A stretch of DNA of 8,928 nucleotides from Naegleria gruberi (taxonomy: Eukaryota). Shown here piece after piece: positions 1 to 8,928 of this stretch (position 1 is its first letter; each line of letters starts with the position of its first letter). Made by a program: the position numbers and the translations under genes. The stretch lies in assembly GCA_000004985.1 (NCBI GenBank), contig GG739051.1, one strand, 5' to 3'. The notes under the pieces were generated by a model. That model was not told where the DNA came from. It worked only from the letters and a program-made list of their open reading frames with translations, and made no database searches.

Positions 1-314
1 TAAACAGTCAAATCGTTTGATTGTTGCTTTTTATCAAATTCAAAGTAATTTTTCAGTAAATTATCATTTTGTAATGGTTTTCTCAATCTCGATTGTTTAA
101 TATTCAATTGATGATTTCTCTTTTTTACTTTAACTTTCATTGTAACATTACTAGTTTCATCAATGAATGACATGTTGTTATTACTACTGCTTGAATCACT
201 CCGTCTAATCCCATGATTATTATTATTAGTACAAGTATTAGTATTAGTAGTAGTAGTAGTAGTAGTAGTATTATTATTACTATTATAAGTGTCTCTATTA
301 GTATTATTCTTCAT
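1..314 (-). CDS. Paralog A of a local gene family, 5' part only. The ATG is at 314-312 and the gene continues past position 1. Hand translation: MKNNTNRDTYNSNNNTTTTTTTTTNTNTCTNNNNHGIRRSDSSSSNNNMSFIDETSNVTMKVKVKKRNHQLNIKQSRLRKPLQNDNLLKNYFEFDKKQQSNDLTV...
   Basis: I translated the minus strand by hand. The frame is open from the in-frame stop at 344-342, through the first ATG at 314-312, to the window edge (more than 100 codons). Residues 48-95 align almost residue for residue with the N-terminus of ORFs 3131..3703 and 4799.. (MSFIDETSNVT.K.KVKKRN..L.IKQSRLRKPLQNDNLLKNYFEFDK). The ORF track omits it because it runs off the window. Confidence 0.6.
   Translation of the reverse strand, partial: MKNNTNRDTYNSNNNTTTTTTTTNTNTCTNNNNHGIRRSDSSSSNNNMSFIDETSNVTMKVKVKKRNHQLNIKQSRLRKPLQNDNLLKNYFEFDKKQQSNDLTV
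241..270 (-). repeat. (AGT)n trinucleotide microsatellite, about 9-10 units. It encodes a poly-Thr run in the N-terminal extension that only paralog A has.
   Basis: The run of agt repeats at 241-270 is directly visible. It reads ACT (Thr) in the minus-strand frame. Confidence 0.8.
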
Positions 315-412
315 TGTAATGTTGATTGTGGTAATTATTCTTCAATTTTTTGATTGTTGTATTGTTTTTGTCTTGCTGCTGTGGTTATTGTTGTGGTTGT
401 TGAGAAGTATTG

Positions 413-451
413 AAGTTATATACTCATACCATATTTAGAACATGCCAAATG
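413..451 (-). promoter_or_regulatory. Putative core promoter of paralog A. On the minus strand it reads CATTTGGCATGTTCTA (plus 451-436), then AAATATGG, then TATATA (plus 422-417), about 100-137 bp upstream of the ATG.
   Basis: The same 16-mer, CATTTGGCATGTTCTA, followed by a TA[AT]AT[AT]GG box, lies at the equivalent distance upstream of paralogs B (2996-3018) and C (4691-4712). The leader that follows is CAA/CCA-rich, as in B and C. Confidence 0.45.
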
Positions 452-1762
452 TAAACTCAAGTTTGAAATATATCAAAGTTTTTGTAAATTAAACTAATTC
501 TATTGTAAGCCTTTCATAATAGTTTCATATATTTACCTAATATAAAATGATTTGAATGTGCTTGACTATTGATGCTACTCAATTATTGGCCAACTCTTGA
601 TTATATCTTGACTATTCAATGGACACACAGAGAGTACTCACTGTGTAGGGTTTGCTAGCTAATAAGAGAAATTGATTTGAAATGATTTTTTTCACTCATC
701 ATTTTCATGTGATCACATCCAATGTTGATTTGTTGAAAGTGGTGTTGAGTTTCTGCAGAAAACAAGGAAATTGATGATGTGTTGGTTGCGTGGTTGGTGA
801 AAAACAATGCACTGCTGCAGGTAGGTCTGTCACTTCGTTCTATACTAAATTGAAAGAGTCTACAAACGGATAGGCTTAAAATTGTGAAATAATCTCATTA
901 TTAGTACTATTAATTACGAAAGGACCTTTACAACTCATAAAAATGATGTGATGAACAATGATGGAGTGATTTGTTTGACATTTGTTATTTCTCTTATATA
1001 TCTGTTCGTATCAAATCAATGCATGTGTTGGTTCCTACCACTTGATGATACATGCGATGCATTTATCTTCCATCATCATACGATGTAAATATTATATTAC
1101 ATGTATTACATGTGTTATTATTACCAACACGCACCAGTGAGCTAATAATCATATTAAAAAATTGTCTCTTGTGGGATAGAGGGTGATGACATTTTTTTGT
1201 GAGTTTTAAAGATGGATTTCATATTTGGGAGGTTTCCAAACAGATACCTCACATTGTGCTGATTAATTCTCATCAATAAGTGCAATAATTCATACAACTT
1301 ATATTCCATTCATTGATCATCTATATTGACAGAATCATCATCCAATTGATTCAATATCATCCTATATGGGTTTAATAACTGTGTTATATGATAAAACTCA
1401 ATAGTTTATACCCCACAATTTATGGAGATTAAATCACACACTCATCTATTTGAATAAGATCTCATCCAAACAAATTAACATTCCAAGAATTGATCAGAGA
1501 TATATTACTGTCTCTTAATGTTTAAAAGGCAATCATTTCACAAATTATAGAGTTATCCATAGATCTTCTTAAGCATCAATGAATCAAAGAAGGAAACTGT
1601 CTTTTTTATATTAATAGGGCGCAGTGGTTTCCTTAACATTTAAAATAAATGGCTTTGTTCTCTGAATAAATTCATATTAAGGATGAAAATAAAAAACAAA
1701 TACCAATATATTATTATTATTAACCATTAACAATACTCAACACTACTACTACTATTACAAGA

Positions 1763-2124
1763 ATGAAAAGTTGTGAAAATTATTCCTTAACATTGAATCA
1801 CCAACANNNNNNNNNNNNNNNNNNNNNNNNNNNNNNNNNNNNNNNNNNNNNNNNNNNNNNNCAACAGAGCCTATTACTACTTGCTCATCTTTAGCTAATA
1901 ATCATAATGATGATGATGCTTATATTAGAGTGAGAAGACCTTCGGAGCACAAAAGTACATGTACCAGTGAAGATAATATTATTATTCAACCATTATCATC
2001 ATCACCATTATTCAATAATATTACTCCTAGGAAGACCACTACTATAACAACGACCAATATTGCTACAACAACAAGTGAACGTAAGCATAGAACTGCAATA
2101 ACCTTCCAAGAATTATTAAATTAA
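1763..2124 (+). CDS. Hypothetical small protein whose ORF spans the 55-N gap. The 5' part (ATG 1763, MKSCENYSLTLNHQ..) and the 3' part (..TEPITTCSSLANNHNDDDAYIRVRRPSEHKSTCTSEDNIIIQPLSSSPLFNNITPRKTTTITTTNIATTTSERKHRTAITFQELLN*) are joined only by assumption. Whether the frame is continuous across the gap is unknown.
   Basis: After the gap only one frame is open, for 87 codons up to the TAA at 2122-2124. That is unusual at this AT content. The ORF-track 'M' at 1930 is a GTG, not an ATG. Before the gap a frame is open from 1724 with an ATG at 1763. AATAAA at 2186-2191 lies about 65 bp past the stop. Confidence 0.3.
1807..1861. other. Assembly gap (55 N).
   Basis: Run of n. Confidence 0.99.
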
Positions 2125-2185
2125 TTTTTTTGCTCAAAGATGACATCAAAGCCTGTATCCACGTTATTTCGAATTGAAAAAGTTA

Positions 2186-2191
2186 AATAAA
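2186..2191 (+). terminator. Putative poly(A) signal AATAAA for the 1763-2124 ORF. It sits in the loop of an 8-bp inverted repeat (2149-2156 and 2192-2199).
   Basis: The hexamer is about 65 bp downstream of the stop. aagcctgt and acaggctt are exact reverse complements. Confidence 0.3.
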
Positions 2192-2737
2192 ACAGGCTTG
2201 TAAAATGTTATTTAATGAATGGAAATAGAAACGCATGCTTGAATAAGTGATATACTCGAAACCTGCCATATTCAACTTTGATACTTAGAATATCAATTTG
2301 GAGTTTTAGACACCGATAGGTTGGCATCTTCAAAAAAATTGAGTCAACCCGCTAAGCGCTGGACAAAACCTTCAGCACACAACCTCGGTTCCATCATCTG
2401 ATGCTTTTCATGTTGTATTTCTTCAACAACATCCATAATATAGTTTAACAAGATACATGTGTCTCGGAAGAACAATTACAAATGTTAATAATATTAGCCT
2501 TAGAGTGTTATTAGATGCATGTGCTACATCATAATGTAGGTGATGGTAAAAACAAGATGTGTGTGCCTGATCTGACTGTAAACAGCAACAACTTGTAATC
2601 CACAATATATTGTGTTGGTTACATCTGACCTTTCAATTAGTCTAACTGGCCACAACTTACTGGATTCCTCTTCTAGCCAAATGAAGATGATGTGTTGTGA
2701 TAATGGAAACAGATTGATTTGGATACTTGATAATTGT

Positions 2738-3542
2738 TGGACAATTGGAATATTAGAGAACTATTATTGAGAACACAATACATATTTAATACTAACCAGT
2801 TTTAGACTTTCTAATTTAATATTGAGATTTCATCTCTCATGGCAGAGTACAATAGTGCTTGCTATGTGGTCTATTCATTGTTACAACTGATTGTCCAACA
2901 AAAAAACAACAACAAGTAGCATTGAATTATCAATCTCAAATAATATAGGTATGTTGATAGAAAACAACAGCACTGTATCTATTGGAATGAATGTTCATTT
3001 GGCATGTTCTATATATGGAATGCTGTCTTATAAAAGAAGGTCAAATAACAGCAACAACAAGTTAGTACAACAAAAATACCACAACAAGAGTGATTAATTT
3101 TATTAAAAAATAATCAAGAACACATATCCAATGAAGAAGAATCAGAATTCCAACAACATGTCATTCATTGATGAAACTAGCAATGTTACAAAGAAAGCAA
3201 AAGTGAAAAAGAGAAATAAGGAATTGAAAATTAAACAATCGAGATTGAGAAAACCATTACAAAATGATAATTTATTGAAAAATTATTTTGAATTTGATAA
3301 GCAACAATTAACAGAAAGTGATTTGACTATTTACAAAATTATTAATCCACCAAATGCATCAACCACCATCATTGATAATTCTAATACTTCTAGTAGTATT
3401 GAAAATAATACAACATGTCCAATAGAAACATCAACAGTTGATACAATTATTACATGTCAGAAGGTTAAATGCAAAACTATGAATAATACTAATAATTTGA
3501 ATCAACATGCATCTAGTAATATTGAATATTCATCATCATCAC
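2738..3542 (+). repeat. Tandem segmental duplication, unit 1 (promoter plus 5' CDS of paralog B). It matches 4433-5207. Weaker similarity extends upstream to about 2500, matching about 4255.
   Basis: By eye the two units align with a period of 1668 bp (ATG 3131 and ATG 4799). The first 233 nt of the CDS are identical apart from one synonymous change (aat/aac). The proximal promoter is about 90% identical with indels, including one of 27 bp. Farther upstream only short motifs are shared, for example aacttgtaatcca at 2590-2602 and 4324-4336. Confidence 0.85.
2976..3018 (+). promoter_or_regulatory. Putative promoter of paralog B. It has an inverted CCAAT (attgg, 2981-2985), the conserved CATTTGGCATGTTCTA (2996-3011) and a TATA-like ctatatatgg (3009-3018), about 115-150 bp upstream of the ATG.
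   Basis: The block is conserved with paralog C (4671-4712). The 16-mer is also conserved upstream of paralog A. A CAA-rich leader follows. Confidence 0.5.
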
Positions 3543-3703
3543 TAACAATCAACTCAATCAACAGCAGTAGTGGTGGAAGCAGTACTAGTGGAAGCAGCAG
3601 TAGTGCATGCAGTGATAATACTTCAAAAGAAGAAGAAGAAGAAGCAGTAGAATTTGATGATTGTGAAAGCTTTCTCAGTTCAATTTCGTTTCTTTTTAAT
3701 TAA
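3131..3703 (+). CDS. Paralog B, complete, 190 aa. It has a basic N-terminal module that looks like a bipartite NLS (KKAKVKKRNKELKIKQSRLRK), an NYFEFD motif, a Ser/Thr/Asn-rich middle and an acidic C-terminus (SKEEEEEAVEFDDCESFLSSISFLFN). Function unknown.
   Basis: The ORF runs from ATG to TAA. The N-terminal half is duplicated at 4799 with in-frame indels only (a 3-nt difference across the variable block plus a 6-nt tgtcag indel), which argues for coding constraint. The module is conserved in minus-strand paralog A. AATAAA lies 76 bp past the stop. Confidence 0.7.
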   Translation: MKKNQNSNNMSFIDETSNVTKKAKVKKRNKELKIKQSRLRKPLQNDNLLKNYFEFDKQQLTESDLTIYKIINPPNASTTIIDNSNTSSSIENNTTCPIETSTVDTIITCQKVKCKTMNNTNNLNQHASSNIEYSSSSLTINSINSSSGGSSTSGSSSSACSDNTSKEEEEEAVEFDDCESFLSSISFLFN

Positions 3704-3778
3704 GTTCTCTCTTTGAAACAGTTTTACGAGTAGTATTTACGCATGTCTATTTATGATCTATTCAAATTAAGGTCAATC

Positions 3779-3784
3779 AATAAA
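3779..3784 (+). terminator. Putative poly(A) signal AATAAA for paralog B.
   Basis: caataaacatg lies about 76 bp downstream of the TAA at 3701-3703. Confidence 0.35.
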
Positions 3785-4670
3785 CATGTAAAATTACTAA
3801 AAACATTAAATTAGCTCACACAATCATCGTTTCCAAAAGTTGTATTACTTTAAGATTTTTTAAATAATTGTACAATTATTGAATGCATGCTACAACAAGT
3901 ACTATAAGTTCTTCATCGAACAGGTGAGCACTATTCATTTCTTGCGTGCATGTGTTGCAAGAGAGAGATACGAATAAACATTAATCTAGTTGTCCAACTT
4001 ACTTTTTATGAATATCGCATGAACGAGTTCTACCTTCCTTATTCAATCCTGAGAACACATTTGGGGTCTAGAAAGCAATTACAACTTTAAAAAAAATTGA
4101 ATCATGATGACAAAGCTAGAAAACCACACATGCTTTTACTATCTCAACACTTGGTAGATGTGTGTTGTATTTTTTGAAAATGTTTCAACAACAATTTATT
4201 TCGCGAAAGGTTTTGTGAGCCTTAAAGTGTTGTTGATGGCTTTTTAGAATCACATGTATTTATTGCATGCATGTGGTGAAGCATCATGATGATGATCTAA
4301 TTGTTTGTTTGATGCATGTATCAAACTTGTAATCCATTGCATGCATCTAATAACACATCCATTCAACCTTCACATGCCGAATCATCATGGTTAAACATGC
4401 ATGTCTATCATTTGTATTCGAATGGCTAATAGTCGGGCAATGGGAAATTAGAGAACTATTATTGAGAATAATTCCACTTATTTAATACTAACCACTTATA
4501 GACTTTCTAATTTAATCATTTGATTACATAACAACTCTCGCCAAGGCTTCATGACTTTGGTTTACAACAAAAAAATCATCAACAAGCATCTACATTCAAT
4601 CCAGTTATTACATTGACCTATCAATCTCAAATATCAATAATAGGTATGTTGATTGAAAACAACAACACTG

Positions 4671-4712
4671 TATCTATTGGAATGAATGTACATTTGGCAT
4701 GTTCTATAATTG
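4671..4712 (+). promoter_or_regulatory. Putative promoter of paralog C. It has an inverted CCAAT (attgg, 4676-4680), CATTTGGCATGTTCTA (4691-4706) and a TATA-like taattgg.
   Basis: Aligned copy of 2976-3018. It sits 27 bp closer to the ATG because of an indel in the leader. Confidence 0.5.
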
Positions 4713-4798
4713 GTAATCAAACTTATTAAAGAAAGTCAAATAACAGCAACAACAAGAGTGATTAATTTTATTAAAAAATAATCAAGAACACATATCCA

Positions 4799-5207
4799 AT
4801 GAAGAAGAACCAGAATTCCAACAACATGTCATTCATTGATGAAACTAGCAATGTTACAAAGAAAGCAAAAGTGAAAAAGAGAAATAAGGAATTGAAAATT
4901 AAACAATCGAGATTGAGAAAACCATTACAAAATGATAATTTATTGAAAAATTATTTTGAATTTGATAAGCAACAATTAACAGAAAGTGATTTGACTATTT
5001 ACAAAATTATTAATCCACCAAATGCATCTACTGACAATACTTTTTCAGAAAATATTACAACTTGCTCGAATGCATCATCATTATCATCAGGTACTAGTGA
5101 AAATGTAAAGGATACAATTATTACAAAGGTTAAATGCAAAACTATGAATAATACTAATAATTTGAATCAACATGCATCTAGTAATATTGAATATTCATCA
5201 TCATCAC
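4799..5207 (+). CDS. Paralog C, 5' part only. The 3' end is lost in the 1784-N gap. Residues 1-78 are identical to B, the next roughly 26 aa are unrelated (DNTFSENITTCSNASSLSSGTSENVK), and identity then resumes (DTIITKVKCKTMNNTNNLNQHASSNIEYSSSS).
   Basis: The ORF starts at ATG 4799 and is open up to the N run. The alignment to B at nucleotide and protein level was done by eye. Everything in the ORF-track entry beyond 5207 is X from the gap. Confidence 0.65.
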
Positions 5208-6991
5208 NNNNNNNNNNNNNNNNNNNNNNNNNNNNNNNNNNNNNNNNNNNNNNNNNNNNNNNNNNNNNNNNNNNNNNNNNNNNNNNNNNNNNNNNNNNNN
5301 NNNNNNNNNNNNNNNNNNNNNNNNNNNNNNNNNNNNNNNNNNNNNNNNNNNNNNNNNNNNNNNNNNNNNNNNNNNNNNNNNNNNNNNNNNNNNNNNNNNN
5401 NNNNNNNNNNNNNNNNNNNNNNNNNNNNNNNNNNNNNNNNNNNNNNNNNNNNNNNNNNNNNNNNNNNNNNNNNNNNNNNNNNNNNNNNNNNNNNNNNNNN
5501 NNNNNNNNNNNNNNNNNNNNNNNNNNNNNNNNNNNNNNNNNNNNNNNNNNNNNNNNNNNNNNNNNNNNNNNNNNNNNNNNNNNNNNNNNNNNNNNNNNNN
5601 NNNNNNNNNNNNNNNNNNNNNNNNNNNNNNNNNNNNNNNNNNNNNNNNNNNNNNNNNNNNNNNNNNNNNNNNNNNNNNNNNNNNNNNNNNNNNNNNNNNN
5701 NNNNNNNNNNNNNNNNNNNNNNNNNNNNNNNNNNNNNNNNNNNNNNNNNNNNNNNNNNNNNNNNNNNNNNNNNNNNNNNNNNNNNNNNNNNNNNNNNNNN
5801 NNNNNNNNNNNNNNNNNNNNNNNNNNNNNNNNNNNNNNNNNNNNNNNNNNNNNNNNNNNNNNNNNNNNNNNNNNNNNNNNNNNNNNNNNNNNNNNNNNNN
5901 NNNNNNNNNNNNNNNNNNNNNNNNNNNNNNNNNNNNNNNNNNNNNNNNNNNNNNNNNNNNNNNNNNNNNNNNNNNNNNNNNNNNNNNNNNNNNNNNNNNN
6001 NNNNNNNNNNNNNNNNNNNNNNNNNNNNNNNNNNNNNNNNNNNNNNNNNNNNNNNNNNNNNNNNNNNNNNNNNNNNNNNNNNNNNNNNNNNNNNNNNNNN
6101 NNNNNNNNNNNNNNNNNNNNNNNNNNNNNNNNNNNNNNNNNNNNNNNNNNNNNNNNNNNNNNNNNNNNNNNNNNNNNNNNNNNNNNNNNNNNNNNNNNNN
6201 NNNNNNNNNNNNNNNNNNNNNNNNNNNNNNNNNNNNNNNNNNNNNNNNNNNNNNNNNNNNNNNNNNNNNNNNNNNNNNNNNNNNNNNNNNNNNNNNNNNN
6301 NNNNNNNNNNNNNNNNNNNNNNNNNNNNNNNNNNNNNNNNNNNNNNNNNNNNNNNNNNNNNNNNNNNNNNNNNNNNNNNNNNNNNNNNNNNNNNNNNNNN
6401 NNNNNNNNNNNNNNNNNNNNNNNNNNNNNNNNNNNNNNNNNNNNNNNNNNNNNNNNNNNNNNNNNNNNNNNNNNNNNNNNNNNNNNNNNNNNNNNNNNNN
6501 NNNNNNNNNNNNNNNNNNNNNNNNNNNNNNNNNNNNNNNNNNNNNNNNNNNNNNNNNNNNNNNNNNNNNNNNNNNNNNNNNNNNNNNNNNNNNNNNNNNN
6601 NNNNNNNNNNNNNNNNNNNNNNNNNNNNNNNNNNNNNNNNNNNNNNNNNNNNNNNNNNNNNNNNNNNNNNNNNNNNNNNNNNNNNNNNNNNNNNNNNNNN
6701 NNNNNNNNNNNNNNNNNNNNNNNNNNNNNNNNNNNNNNNNNNNNNNNNNNNNNNNNNNNNNNNNNNNNNNNNNNNNNNNNNNNNNNNNNNNNNNNNNNNN
6801 NNNNNNNNNNNNNNNNNNNNNNNNNNNNNNNNNNNNNNNNNNNNNNNNNNNNNNNNNNNNNNNNNNNNNNNNNNNNNNNNNNNNNNNNNNNNNNNNNNNN
6901 NNNNNNNNNNNNNNNNNNNNNNNNNNNNNNNNNNNNNNNNNNNNNNNNNNNNNNNNNNNNNNNNNNNNNNNNNNNNNNNNNNNNNNNNNNN
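5208..6991. other. Assembly gap (1784 N). It starts inside the Ser-rich low-complexity coding part of paralog C.
   Basis: Run of n. Its length (1784 bp) is close to the tandem period (1668 bp). Confidence 0.99.
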
Positions 6992-7161: not shown

Positions 7162-7746
7162 TTATTCCATATGAAAAGTCCATATTGGAAAATTAAACTC
7201 CATTTGAGTTTGTGCTGGATTGGAATAGGCTGAATTCTTTCTCTTTTGACATTTTCGTCTTCTTTTCAAATGTTTTGAATTTGAATTATCAATACAAGAA
7301 GTAGTGGATGAAATTGAGATTTTCTTTTCTGTATTTGGACTTGTATAATATTTGAATGAAGAAGAGGAAATCTTTCTCTTCTTTGAGATTGATGAGATAT
7401 TGGGCATGGTAGTATTTTCATTCTTGGTGGTGGTGAATATTGTTGGAAGTTGAAACGTTTCTAGTGCCTCATTGTGATCAGAATTGTTTAATACTACTAA
7501 TGAGGAACTAATTAATTGTTGATCTTTCACTAGTTCATCTGAATGAAAAACAAAGCTGTCATCTTGTTGGTGATGAACTTGTTTGATAGTCTGTAATATT
7601 TTCCAACTCTGCATAAAATCAACAATATCAAGATTTAAACTTGGCAATTCATTGTTACTGGTATTGATAGAAGAGGAGGAGGATGACATTGATGATGGAG
7701 AGACTATTCCACAATGAATATTAAATGGAGAGGGTAACATCAACAT
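7162..7746 (-). CDS. Hypothetical Ser/Asn-rich protein of about 194 aa, counted from the first ATG at 7746-7744. It has a C-terminal basic cluster (KHLKRRRKCQKRK). Function unknown.
   Basis: The frame is open on the minus strand from 7854 to the TAA at 7162. The ORF-track start at 7824 is a GTG and there is no ATG upstream in frame. The first ATG gives MLMLPSPF... AATAAA overlaps the stop (gaaTAAatt on the minus strand). Low-complexity composition makes a chance ORF more plausible than usual. Confidence 0.4.
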   Translation of the reverse strand: MLMLPSPFNIHCGIVSPSSMSSSSSSINTSNNELPSLNLDIVDFMQSWKILQTIKQVHHQQDDSFVFHSDELVKDQQLISSSLVVLNNSDHNEALETFQLPTIFTTTKNENTTMPNISSISKKRKISSSSFKYYTSPNTEKKISISSTTSCIDNSNSKHLKRRRKCQKRKNSAYSNPAQTQMEFNFPIWTFHME

Positions 7747-8167
7747 TTCAGCAACTGAACAATTGACTTGTTTTTTTTTTGAAATACTGTATCTGAATAG
7801 AGAGTTGGTGATGAGTTCTACCACTTTAATATTTACTATTCCAGTTTCAACTTGTCAAATCCGCAGAATAGTTATTTTATTGGTCAGTGCGATTTGTTAC
7901 AGAAATTCATGAAATCAAAATGGACTTGGATACTGAACAAGGCATTATTATCTCCTCAACAAAAGAGAGCAATCATGATTGTATATCAAGTTCTTCTCAA
8001 ATTGCCAAGAGGTATCTTTACGAAAATCATGAAATAAATGATTACTTGGCAGGTCTATTTAGGCTTGAGATACCATAGTGTTATGGAAAGAGATTTCACA
8101 ACTTTCAACTGTTGGCCAACAAACGTTATTAAGAAATTCTATTTTGTACATTTCGGTTAAACATTTA

Positions 8168-8713
8168 TTACCAAAATATTGGTTTTTTCAACATTTGATA
8201 ATATGGAGATTGTTCATCAGTTAATAGTTCAACAATTCCTTCATAATCTAAGGAGAGCATTAATTTTGAATTTAGTAATGATGATGATTCTGATCTTGTT
8301 TCAGATTGCTGATTAGTCAAAATTGAATGTGGGAAACACATTGATTGGAAATTATATCTACAACCATTATTACTGTCCGTACTTTCCTTTGGATGAACAA
8401 TGGTATTCAAAACACTACCTTCGCTATTAGAAACCTTCATTCCATTCGTTTCATTTTCTGTATCAGTTTTCTCTGAAACATGAAAATGAAACAAAGATTC
8501 AATAATTTTACTTGACATCATTTCACTATTTGACCTCTGAATTGTATTAAAATCCATTACTGTATATTCTTCATTCCTACTAATTTCATCTCTACATTTA
8601 GTTTTGTTTAGTTTACTATTTGGCACCATAACAAAGTAAAATTGTTTGAATTTATCGTGGTCGATTTGTTTTCTCAATTTTGAAGGGATTTTCCTGCTCA
8701 ACCCACTTGGCAT
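8168..8713 (-). CDS. Hypothetical 181-aa protein with a basic N-terminus (MPSGLSRKIPSKLRKQIDHDKFKQFYF...). It may be a distant relative of the A/B/C module.
   Basis: ORF from ATG (8713-8711) to TAA. Upstream in frame there are 19 open codons without an ATG and then a stop. TAATAAATG at the stop supplies AATAAA. The possible link to the family rests only on the weak pattern S[KR]LRK.[IL]..D.[FL]...YF, shared with KQSRLRKPLQNDNLLKNYF. Confidence 0.4.
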   Translation of the reverse strand: MPSGLSRKIPSKLRKQIDHDKFKQFYFVMVPNSKLNKTKCRDEISRNEEYTVMDFNTIQRSNSEMMSSKIIESLFHFHVSEKTDTENETNGMKVSNSEGSVLNTIVHPKESTDSNNGCRYNFQSMCFPHSILTNQQSETRSESSSLLNSKLMLSLDYEGIVELLTDEQSPYYQMLKKPIFW

Positions 8714-8928
8714 TTGTTCGTTTTTTTTCTGAGCCTTGTGTTGGATTTTCTGTGGGATACTTTATTCGATACTATGACTTACTATCTTGAGCACAAAGCA
8801 TGGCTTACAATCTCTCTCAAATGTTCCTTTTGTGAACGAGTCAGTACAAACATTAACACGAATCAATGCAAACAATACAATTAAAGAAACTCAACCAATC
8901 AACAGGTGAACGATTGGAGCATAAAAAA

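Follow-up and report, generated by a model that had tools for sequence, protein, structure and literature searches.

The window analysed here is one complete 8,928-bp scaffold of Naegleria gruberi, AT-rich (GC 0.24-0.36) and microsatellite-laden. Its left-hand part carries three related small genes, which we call A, B and C, with A on the minus strand and B and C one behind the other on the plus strand. The features of the three genes and the gaps around them are as follows.

1-314 (3-314 in frame), minus strand: gene A, a partial coding sequence (CDS) that runs off the scaffold end
24-179, minus strand: module of A, SFIDET...RLRKPLQNDNLLKNYFEFD; DNA 91% identical to the modules of B and C
1807-1861: assembly gap of 55 N, the second of two in the window
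3131-3703, plus strand: gene B, a complete CDS of 190 aa; NAEGRDRAFT_54780 / XP_002668468, 100% identity
3158-3355, plus strand: N-terminal family module of B (residues 10-75), with the DET motif, the basic helix, RLRKPLQNDNLLKNYFEF and the LTIYKII strand
3361-3440, plus strand: hypervariable loop of B, unalignable with 5029-5108 of C
3446-3469, plus strand: second strand motif of B, IITCQKVK, paired with LTIYKII in the AlphaFold2 model
3626-3700, plus strand: acidic-hydrophobic C-terminal motif of B, KEEEEEAVEFDDCESFLSSISFLFN, with an AlphaFold2 helix at residues 179-189
4799-5207, plus strand: gene C, first 136 codons, then the assembly gap; nearly identical to NAEGRDRAFT_53198
5208-6991: assembly gap of 1,784 N, which hides the 3' end of C

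The initial annotation described three paralogues, A inverted relative to a B-C tandem pair, and the repeat structure agrees. With a repeat finder, the module of A (24-179) is an inverted copy of both 3152-3307 and 4820-4975 (156 nt, 91% identity), and B and C share two direct repeats, 3081-3363 with 4749-5031 (283 nt, 99%) and 3461-3542 with 5126-5207 (82 nt, 100%). The only long repeats within 1-5207 are the gene copies themselves. A start context, CAATGAAGAA, is common to all three genes. The tail of C is hidden by the assembly gap; the near-identical NAEGRDRAFT_53198 has the same acidic tail as B. A scan of the window with Rfam gave no match and a tRNA scan was empty, the latter with a bacterial-type tool of little relevance to a eukaryote.

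Gene A had been presented as a gene missing from the open reading frame (ORF) track. Its minus-strand translation (3-314) is indeed a 104-codon ORF without a stop up to the scaffold end, and the ORF lister omitted it because no stop precedes that end; the gene was, however, already annotated, as a partial "predicted protein" of 103 aa in GenBank (P0004). Both A and B are thus already deposited as "predicted protein" and their annotation is not new. A second claim, that A carries a unique 46-aa N-terminal extension, did not hold. The extra residues are a microsatellite expansion at 218-306 on the minus strand ((AGT)12 plus TATTAG x14.8, as plus-strand units), coding for a Thr/Asn-rich tract, and the expansion sits within a short MK(K/N)N leader that is also present in B and C.

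To search for relatives, the module of A and B was run as a profile in an exhaustive HMMER search of 1.84 billion cluster representatives at a cut-off of E <= 1e-3. There were 25 matches; two (P0016 and P0025) are spurious repeat proteins and the other 23 carry the module. Two of the 23, P0002 (NAEGRDRAFT_53199) and P0004 (gene A), belong to the A/B/C locus, and there are about 22 further cluster representatives. A word-indexed search with the family profile returned A itself as the sole match. The N. gruberi members NAEGRDRAFT_45892, 67553, 71658 (plus 76731), 76150, 72123 and 70228 lie on six different large scaffolds. N. lovaniensis has C9374_014028 (868 aa), and Willaertia magna has six members: ABK040_006246 and 006247, which are adjacent, 006269 on the same contig, 012534, 006039 and 003299. 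Further members are found on ENA, Logan and JGI contigs. All named relatives are labelled "predicted" or "hypothetical" protein.

Rather than the local family of three first proposed, this is a dispersed one. It has nine or more loci in N. gruberi, members in another genus, intact ORFs of 148-868 aa and 26-50% protein identity across genera. As far as databases show, it is confined to Naegleria and the sister genus Willaertia (vahlkampfiid amoeboflagellates), in line with the suggestion that it would prove lineage-specific. Like A, B and C, the named relatives have the DET...RLRKxLxNxxLLxNYFE[WF] module, the [VI][VI]TxEK[VI] strand and an acidic-hydrophobic C-terminus, and the adjacent Willaertia pair recalls the neighbouring A, B and C. 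They differ in length and, by subgroup, in the C-terminal motif (DDCxSFLSS, LDLxDFIxSL or hydrophobic helices). On four metagenome contigs (L001-L004; proteins P0009, P0014 and P0015), distant members are single-copy, and their neighbours are unrelated genes, one of which has a weak adh_short match; not all of the family, therefore, is clustered in tandem.

In the family alignment, D-E-T, L and N-Y-F are invariant and K, L-R-K and L nearly so. The consensus begins xSF[IV]DETxxVxxK, with an [SF][FI][IV]DET core, and continues with a basic stretch of variable length; then come an amphipathic RLRKxLQNxxLLxNYFE[WF], a spacer of about 10 residues and LTx[YF]K[IV]. A loop of 4 to >150 residues separates this from the second strand, [VI][VI]T[SK]EK[VI], and the protein ends in an acidic region with a short hydrophobic helix at its end (DDCxSFLSSxS, LDLxDFIxSL or Leu-rich variants). 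A, B and C have all of the DET, LxNYF and LRKxL residues by which, within a module of about 60 aa, we define a vahlkampfiid DET-NYFE family, and a hidden Markov model (HMM) of the module scores 102 bits for B and 89 bits for A. The downstream strands and the acidic-hydrophobic C-terminus are all present in B; C has both strands, and its C-terminus is seen via 53198. The sequence of A stops after DLTV.

A further claim, a layout of basic module plus acidic tail, is a family-wide property: the module has a net charge of +4 to +9 in 33/33 sequences and the last 40 residues are net negative in 29/32 complete ones. The bipartite nuclear localisation signal (NLS) that had been noted fared less uniformly. 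The classical pattern (2 basic residues, a spacer of 10-12, at least 3 basic in the next 5) is found in A, B and C, as KKRN(K/H)(E/Q)L(K/N)IKQSRLRKP, but it is not a general feature of the family, as detailed below.

The module had also been said to contain no recognisable domain, and every search agreed. With Pfam, A, B and C gave no match at E <= 1 (three other window ORFs, also searched, gave no consistent family), and 24 family members searched at E <= 0.1 gave no recurrent family. A PDB sequence profile search found nothing below E 0.06, with two sub-threshold chance matches at E 0.07-0.08, to a repeat protein and a Fis-like helix-turn-helix. Foldseek of the predicted core against PDB returned 0 matches, from a model of low confidence. 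Searching the literature by locus tag and UniProt accession gave no mention of any family member in the papers covered, and no family identifiers were found in the Naegleria paper supplements searched.

We predicted the structure of B with AlphaFold2 from a 24-sequence alignment. The model is mostly disordered (mean predicted local distance difference test, pLDDT, 60; predicted template modelling score, pTM, 0.23). It places a helix at residues 17-31, the basic stretch (pLDDT 72-81), pairs strands 64-71 and 106-113 as a beta-hairpin around the hypervariable loop, and ends in the 179-189 helix. A model of the short-loop core of 76150 has the same elements at equally low confidence; over both runs pLDDT was 60-62 and pTM 0.23-0.31. 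On these models, the family proteins look mostly disordered and built from short conserved motifs.

We compared the modules of A and B over 50 codons to estimate selection. There are 7 synonymous and 7 non-synonymous substitutions (proportions per site: pS 0.28, pN 0.056; corrected: dS 0.35, dN 0.058), giving an omega of 0.17; the synonymous share of the changes is 7/14, against about 17% of sites that are synonymous. Of the non-synonymous changes, one is a K/Q change at the last codon of the aligned segment; all the others are in its Lys-rich stretch, residues 12-24. In the C-terminal half of the module, IKQSRLRKPLQNDNLLKNYFEFDK, the protein is invariant between A and B, yet the DNA has three synonymous changes. 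Although the sample is small, this pattern points to purifying selection on the coding sequence. Because omega is 0.17 and the protein module recurs in other genera, the similarity of A, B and C is not due to chance. We are therefore confident that all three genes code for functional proteins and are paralogues within an undescribed family.

The three genes also share a 24-nt element, ACATTTGGCATGTTCTAWAWWTGG, upstream of the start codon. At <=3 mismatches it has exactly three sites in the window, where 0 are expected (200 shuffles), each oriented as its gene.

429-452, minus strand: upstream element of A, ACATTTGGCATGTTCTAAATATGG, TATA-like; ends 114 nt before the ATG
2995-3018, plus strand: upstream element of B; 112 nt before the ATG
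4690-4713, plus strand: upstream element of C; 85 nt before the ATG

A TATA-like core lies inside the element, which is followed by a CA-rich leader, and the spacing between element and ATG is conserved in all three genes. The upstream region of A is otherwise unalignable with those of B and C; retention of the element therefore suggests that it is a functional core promoter and that A, B and C are probably co-regulated. Separately, there are 16 occurrences of TGCATG/CATGCA in the window where 5.8 +/- 2.6 would be expected; ten of them are clustered at 3884-4403, between B and C, several as overlapping GCATGCATG. This group, upstream of C, may be a cis-regulatory cluster.

B and C belong to a tandem duplication in which the level of identity changes abruptly along the unit.

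2735-3542, plus strand: first copy of the duplication unit (promoter and most of B); partner at 4428-5207
Promoter, B versus C: numerous indels; identity about 91% over the columns that align
Leader, final 50 nt: 100% identity
First 230 nt of the CDS: 99.6% identity
Loop of about 80 nt (3361-3440 versus 5029-5108): essentially unalignable
Rest of the CDS, as far as the gap: 100% identity

The switch from 99.6-100% identity to unalignable sequence falls exactly in the loop between the two predicted strands, which gives the loop a cassette-like look. A second pair of genes has both loop types as well: NAEGRDRAFT_53199, which is 97% identical to B, and 53198, which differs from C at one position in 136 aa. 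These are consecutive accessions, EFC38202.1 and EFC38201.1, on the same 243,952-bp scaffold, and presumably therefore adjacent genes. The local cluster arose through one inverted and one tandem duplication, and the flanks of B and C may since have been homogenised by gene conversion, with the loop replaced or kept different.

The second pair raises the question of how much of the cluster is real. If the 8.9-kb scaffold were a redundant haplotype copy of a region of the 244-kb scaffold, the cluster would be largely an assembly artefact and the copy number inflated. The near-identity of 53199 and 53198 to B and C is what such an artefact would produce; in addition, another family member has a near-identical copy on a 6,848-bp scaffold, and the window contains two N gaps. 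Against this, an unbroken 1.1 kb of sequence connects B with C, their loops differ, and a B/C-type pair is found on both scaffolds, so that each copy of the tandem pair is real. A differs from B and C by 9% in DNA and is therefore a true paralogue. ORF E, described below, matches its large-scaffold relative only in part, so the two scaffolds may not be simple alleles. Moreover, redundancy changes the genome-wide count and not the local triplet. The 8.9-kb scaffold is probably redundant with the larger one as a haplotype, or else a recent segmental copy of it; that the cluster is largely an artefact is a serious contender, though not the account we favour.

What might the proteins do? We propose that they would act as short-motif adaptors or regulators. 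The basic N-terminal module would serve nuclear import, bind a conserved partner of negative charge (for instance nucleic acid, chromatin or importin), or do both. A different partner would be recruited, much as by an activation domain, through the acidic-hydrophobic C-terminal helix, and the variable loop would diversify specificity between paralogues. The nuclear-adaptor part of this explanation is tentative, and we lean against it as it stands; the full account, taking identity, evolution and adaptor mechanism together, is the best we have and has about an even chance of being correct. The "small nuclear regulator" that the initial annotation saw in the layout of these proteins stays a hypothesis drawn from their sequences.

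The closest known layout is that of acidic activators and small nuclear shuttling proteins with a bipartite NLS: A, B and C have KK-x10-RLRKP, and the family architecture of disordered linker, acidic tract and short hydrophobic end helix is the same. The likeness is one of layout only, as the family has no recognised DNA-binding domain and 14/33 of its sequences do not have the NLS pattern.

A bZIP basic region has N-x7-R and a heptad leucine zipper in register. The family resembles it (Pfam bZIP_1/bZIP_2) in having a Lys/Arg-rich predicted helix with RN...SR. However, proline or another variable residue directly follows the family basic region. We rejected bZIP given the lack of a Pfam match, an Asn-to-Arg spacing of 9 rather than 8, the lack of a heptad leucine zipper and the indels in the basic stretch.

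A by-eye comparison with the HMGN proteins and the CENP-C motif gave a further resemblance: small disordered proteins with a basic N-terminal region, an R-x-R-L/S-x-K-P-like core (SRLRKP), YFEW aromatics nearby and, as in HMGN, an acidic tail. The HMGN core is RRSARLSA; CENP-C has RxSxRxxxxPxxYW and a C-terminal cupin domain. HMGN is not known outside vertebrates. The family proteins have no Pfam or PDB sequence match to either, a different spacing of the aromatic pair and no cupin domain, and we treat this apparent likeness as a lead for experiment and not as evidence of membership.

Several observations weigh against the nuclear-adaptor account or parts of the evolutionary one. There is no homology to a DNA-binding, chromatin or activation domain by Pfam, PDB profile or Foldseek, and a search of papers and supplements found no experiment or expression data on any member. 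The bipartite-NLS pattern lies inside the module in only 19/33 family sequences. The length of the basic stretch varies between paralogues, which argues against a rigid, bZIP-like DNA-reading helix. The AlphaFold2 confidence is low, so that the hairpin and helices are only suggestions. A search upstream of four distant relatives, on metagenome contigs, did not find the 24-nt element. Finally, the dN/dS estimate is based on 14 substitutions, and gene conversion between B and C is inferred from the identity pattern.

The same short motifs could instead belong to cytoplasmic or cell-cycle proteins: substrates or inhibitors of the anaphase-promoting complex/cyclosome (APC/C), proteins like cyclin-dependent kinase (CDK) inhibitors, or VAP-binding adaptors. 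Mostly disordered proteins with short conserved motifs are typical of such regulators. Three resemblances of this kind are visible in the sequence and serve as leads: a minimal RxxL at RKPL, a likeness of NYFEFD to the WNFDF/KYNFD of CDI/KRP, and a likeness of EFDDCES, after an acidic tract, to FFAT. None stood up well in the family. The CDK inhibitor domain (p27/KRP, Pfam CDI, with its W/Y-N-F-D-F ... Y-E-W core) and every other cell-cycle family gave no Pfam match in 24 members. The D-box and FFAT resemblances gave no profile match, and several of the residues involved are not conserved: RKPL is not followed by the downstream D-box positions, and the residue after LRK varies (P, Q, S, T, D or L), so that RKPL itself is not kept; EFDDCES occurs only in the B/C subgroup, while other members end in LDLEDFIQSL-type or hydrophobic helices. 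We consider a cytoplasmic or cell-cycle role improbable.

It is very unlikely that the three genes are pseudogenes in decay, or copies of a dispersed non-coding repeat whose open frames are due to chance in AT-rich low-complexity DNA. Such DNA is what surrounds them (GC 0.24-0.33, microsatellite-laden), A is truncated and C interrupted, and transcript evidence was not found in the literature and supplements searched. Against this, A ends at the scaffold edge and C at an assembly gap, so that neither is cut short by mutation. Omega is 0.17, and the synonymous changes lie mainly where the protein does not vary. The motifs are conserved across genera at the identities given above, in ORFs that stay intact, and the upstream element and start context are conserved as well.

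An origin from a giant virus or transposable element can be set aside as scarcely credible: the genes are on a small AT-rich unplaced scaffold, the proteins are orphans and Naegleria genomes are reported to carry viral insertions (PMC12344493), but no relative was found in 2.9 million viral contigs or in a scan of JGI metagenome contigs, Pfam found no transposase, integrase or capsid domains, and the family is spread across large chromosomal scaffolds in two genera (three species), with ordinary genes as neighbours on metagenome contigs.

Three other open frames in the window have features that recall the family. ORF E (7162-7824, minus strand, 220 aa) has no entry of its own in the protein database. 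A relative of 349 aa in N. gruberi (P0036) lies on the 243,952-bp scaffold of 53198 and 53199, and only two blocks are conserved between ORF E and this relative: PSLNLD[IV][IV]DFMQSW and a C-terminal KHLKRRRKxQKRKNSAxxNPAQTQMEFxFPxWTFHxE (80% over 44 aa). At 8/13 residues, the first of these is like the C-terminal LKLDLEDFIQSLK of the Willaertia family members.

ORF D (8168-8713, minus strand, 181 aa) contains SKLRKQIDHDKFKQFYFVM, which scores 11.5 bits against the module HMM, a score reached by 0/2000 composition-matched shuffles. Its end, LMLSLDYEGIVELL, resembles the family C-terminal motif, and the invariant DET is missing. ORF D may be a degenerate fourth family member; more speculatively, it could have a first exon at 8783-8801, joined via a 33-nt GTAAGT...CAG intron at 8750-8782. 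Lastly, an open frame at 1862-2124 on the plus strand, across the 55-N gap, ends at 2124 and encodes RRPSEHKSTCTSED, comparable to RNPSKKNRVVTSEK in NAEGRDRAFT_45892; its C-terminal ITFQELLN is comparable to LTLQELMN in 71658, and the similarity is weak. This frame could encode the C-terminal portion of one more family-like gene, with its 5' end in the gap.

The regulatory biology of Naegleria is poorly mapped. This holds for its rapid assembly of basal bodies de novo, for its closed mitosis with mitosis-only microtubules and for the pathogenic relative N. fowleri; many of its genes are orphans. Our analysis supplies a family alignment, diagnostic residues (DET, LRKxL and LxNYF) and a candidate cis-element. 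The family is new but of an ordinary kind, with disordered proteins, restricted to one lineage and duplicating in tandem, and it leaves current understanding unchallenged. A bolder idea, for which we hold out little hope, is that the DET-NYFE module might be a new small partner-binding or chromatin/DNA-binding unit of heterolobosean-specific nuclear regulators, with paralogues specified by the cassette-like loop and A, B and C, through a promoter element private to them, forming a co-regulated set that would control a Naegleria-specific programme (amoeba-to-flagellate differentiation, encystment or mitosis). The importance of the family would grow if expression or localisation linked it to a programme of this kind.

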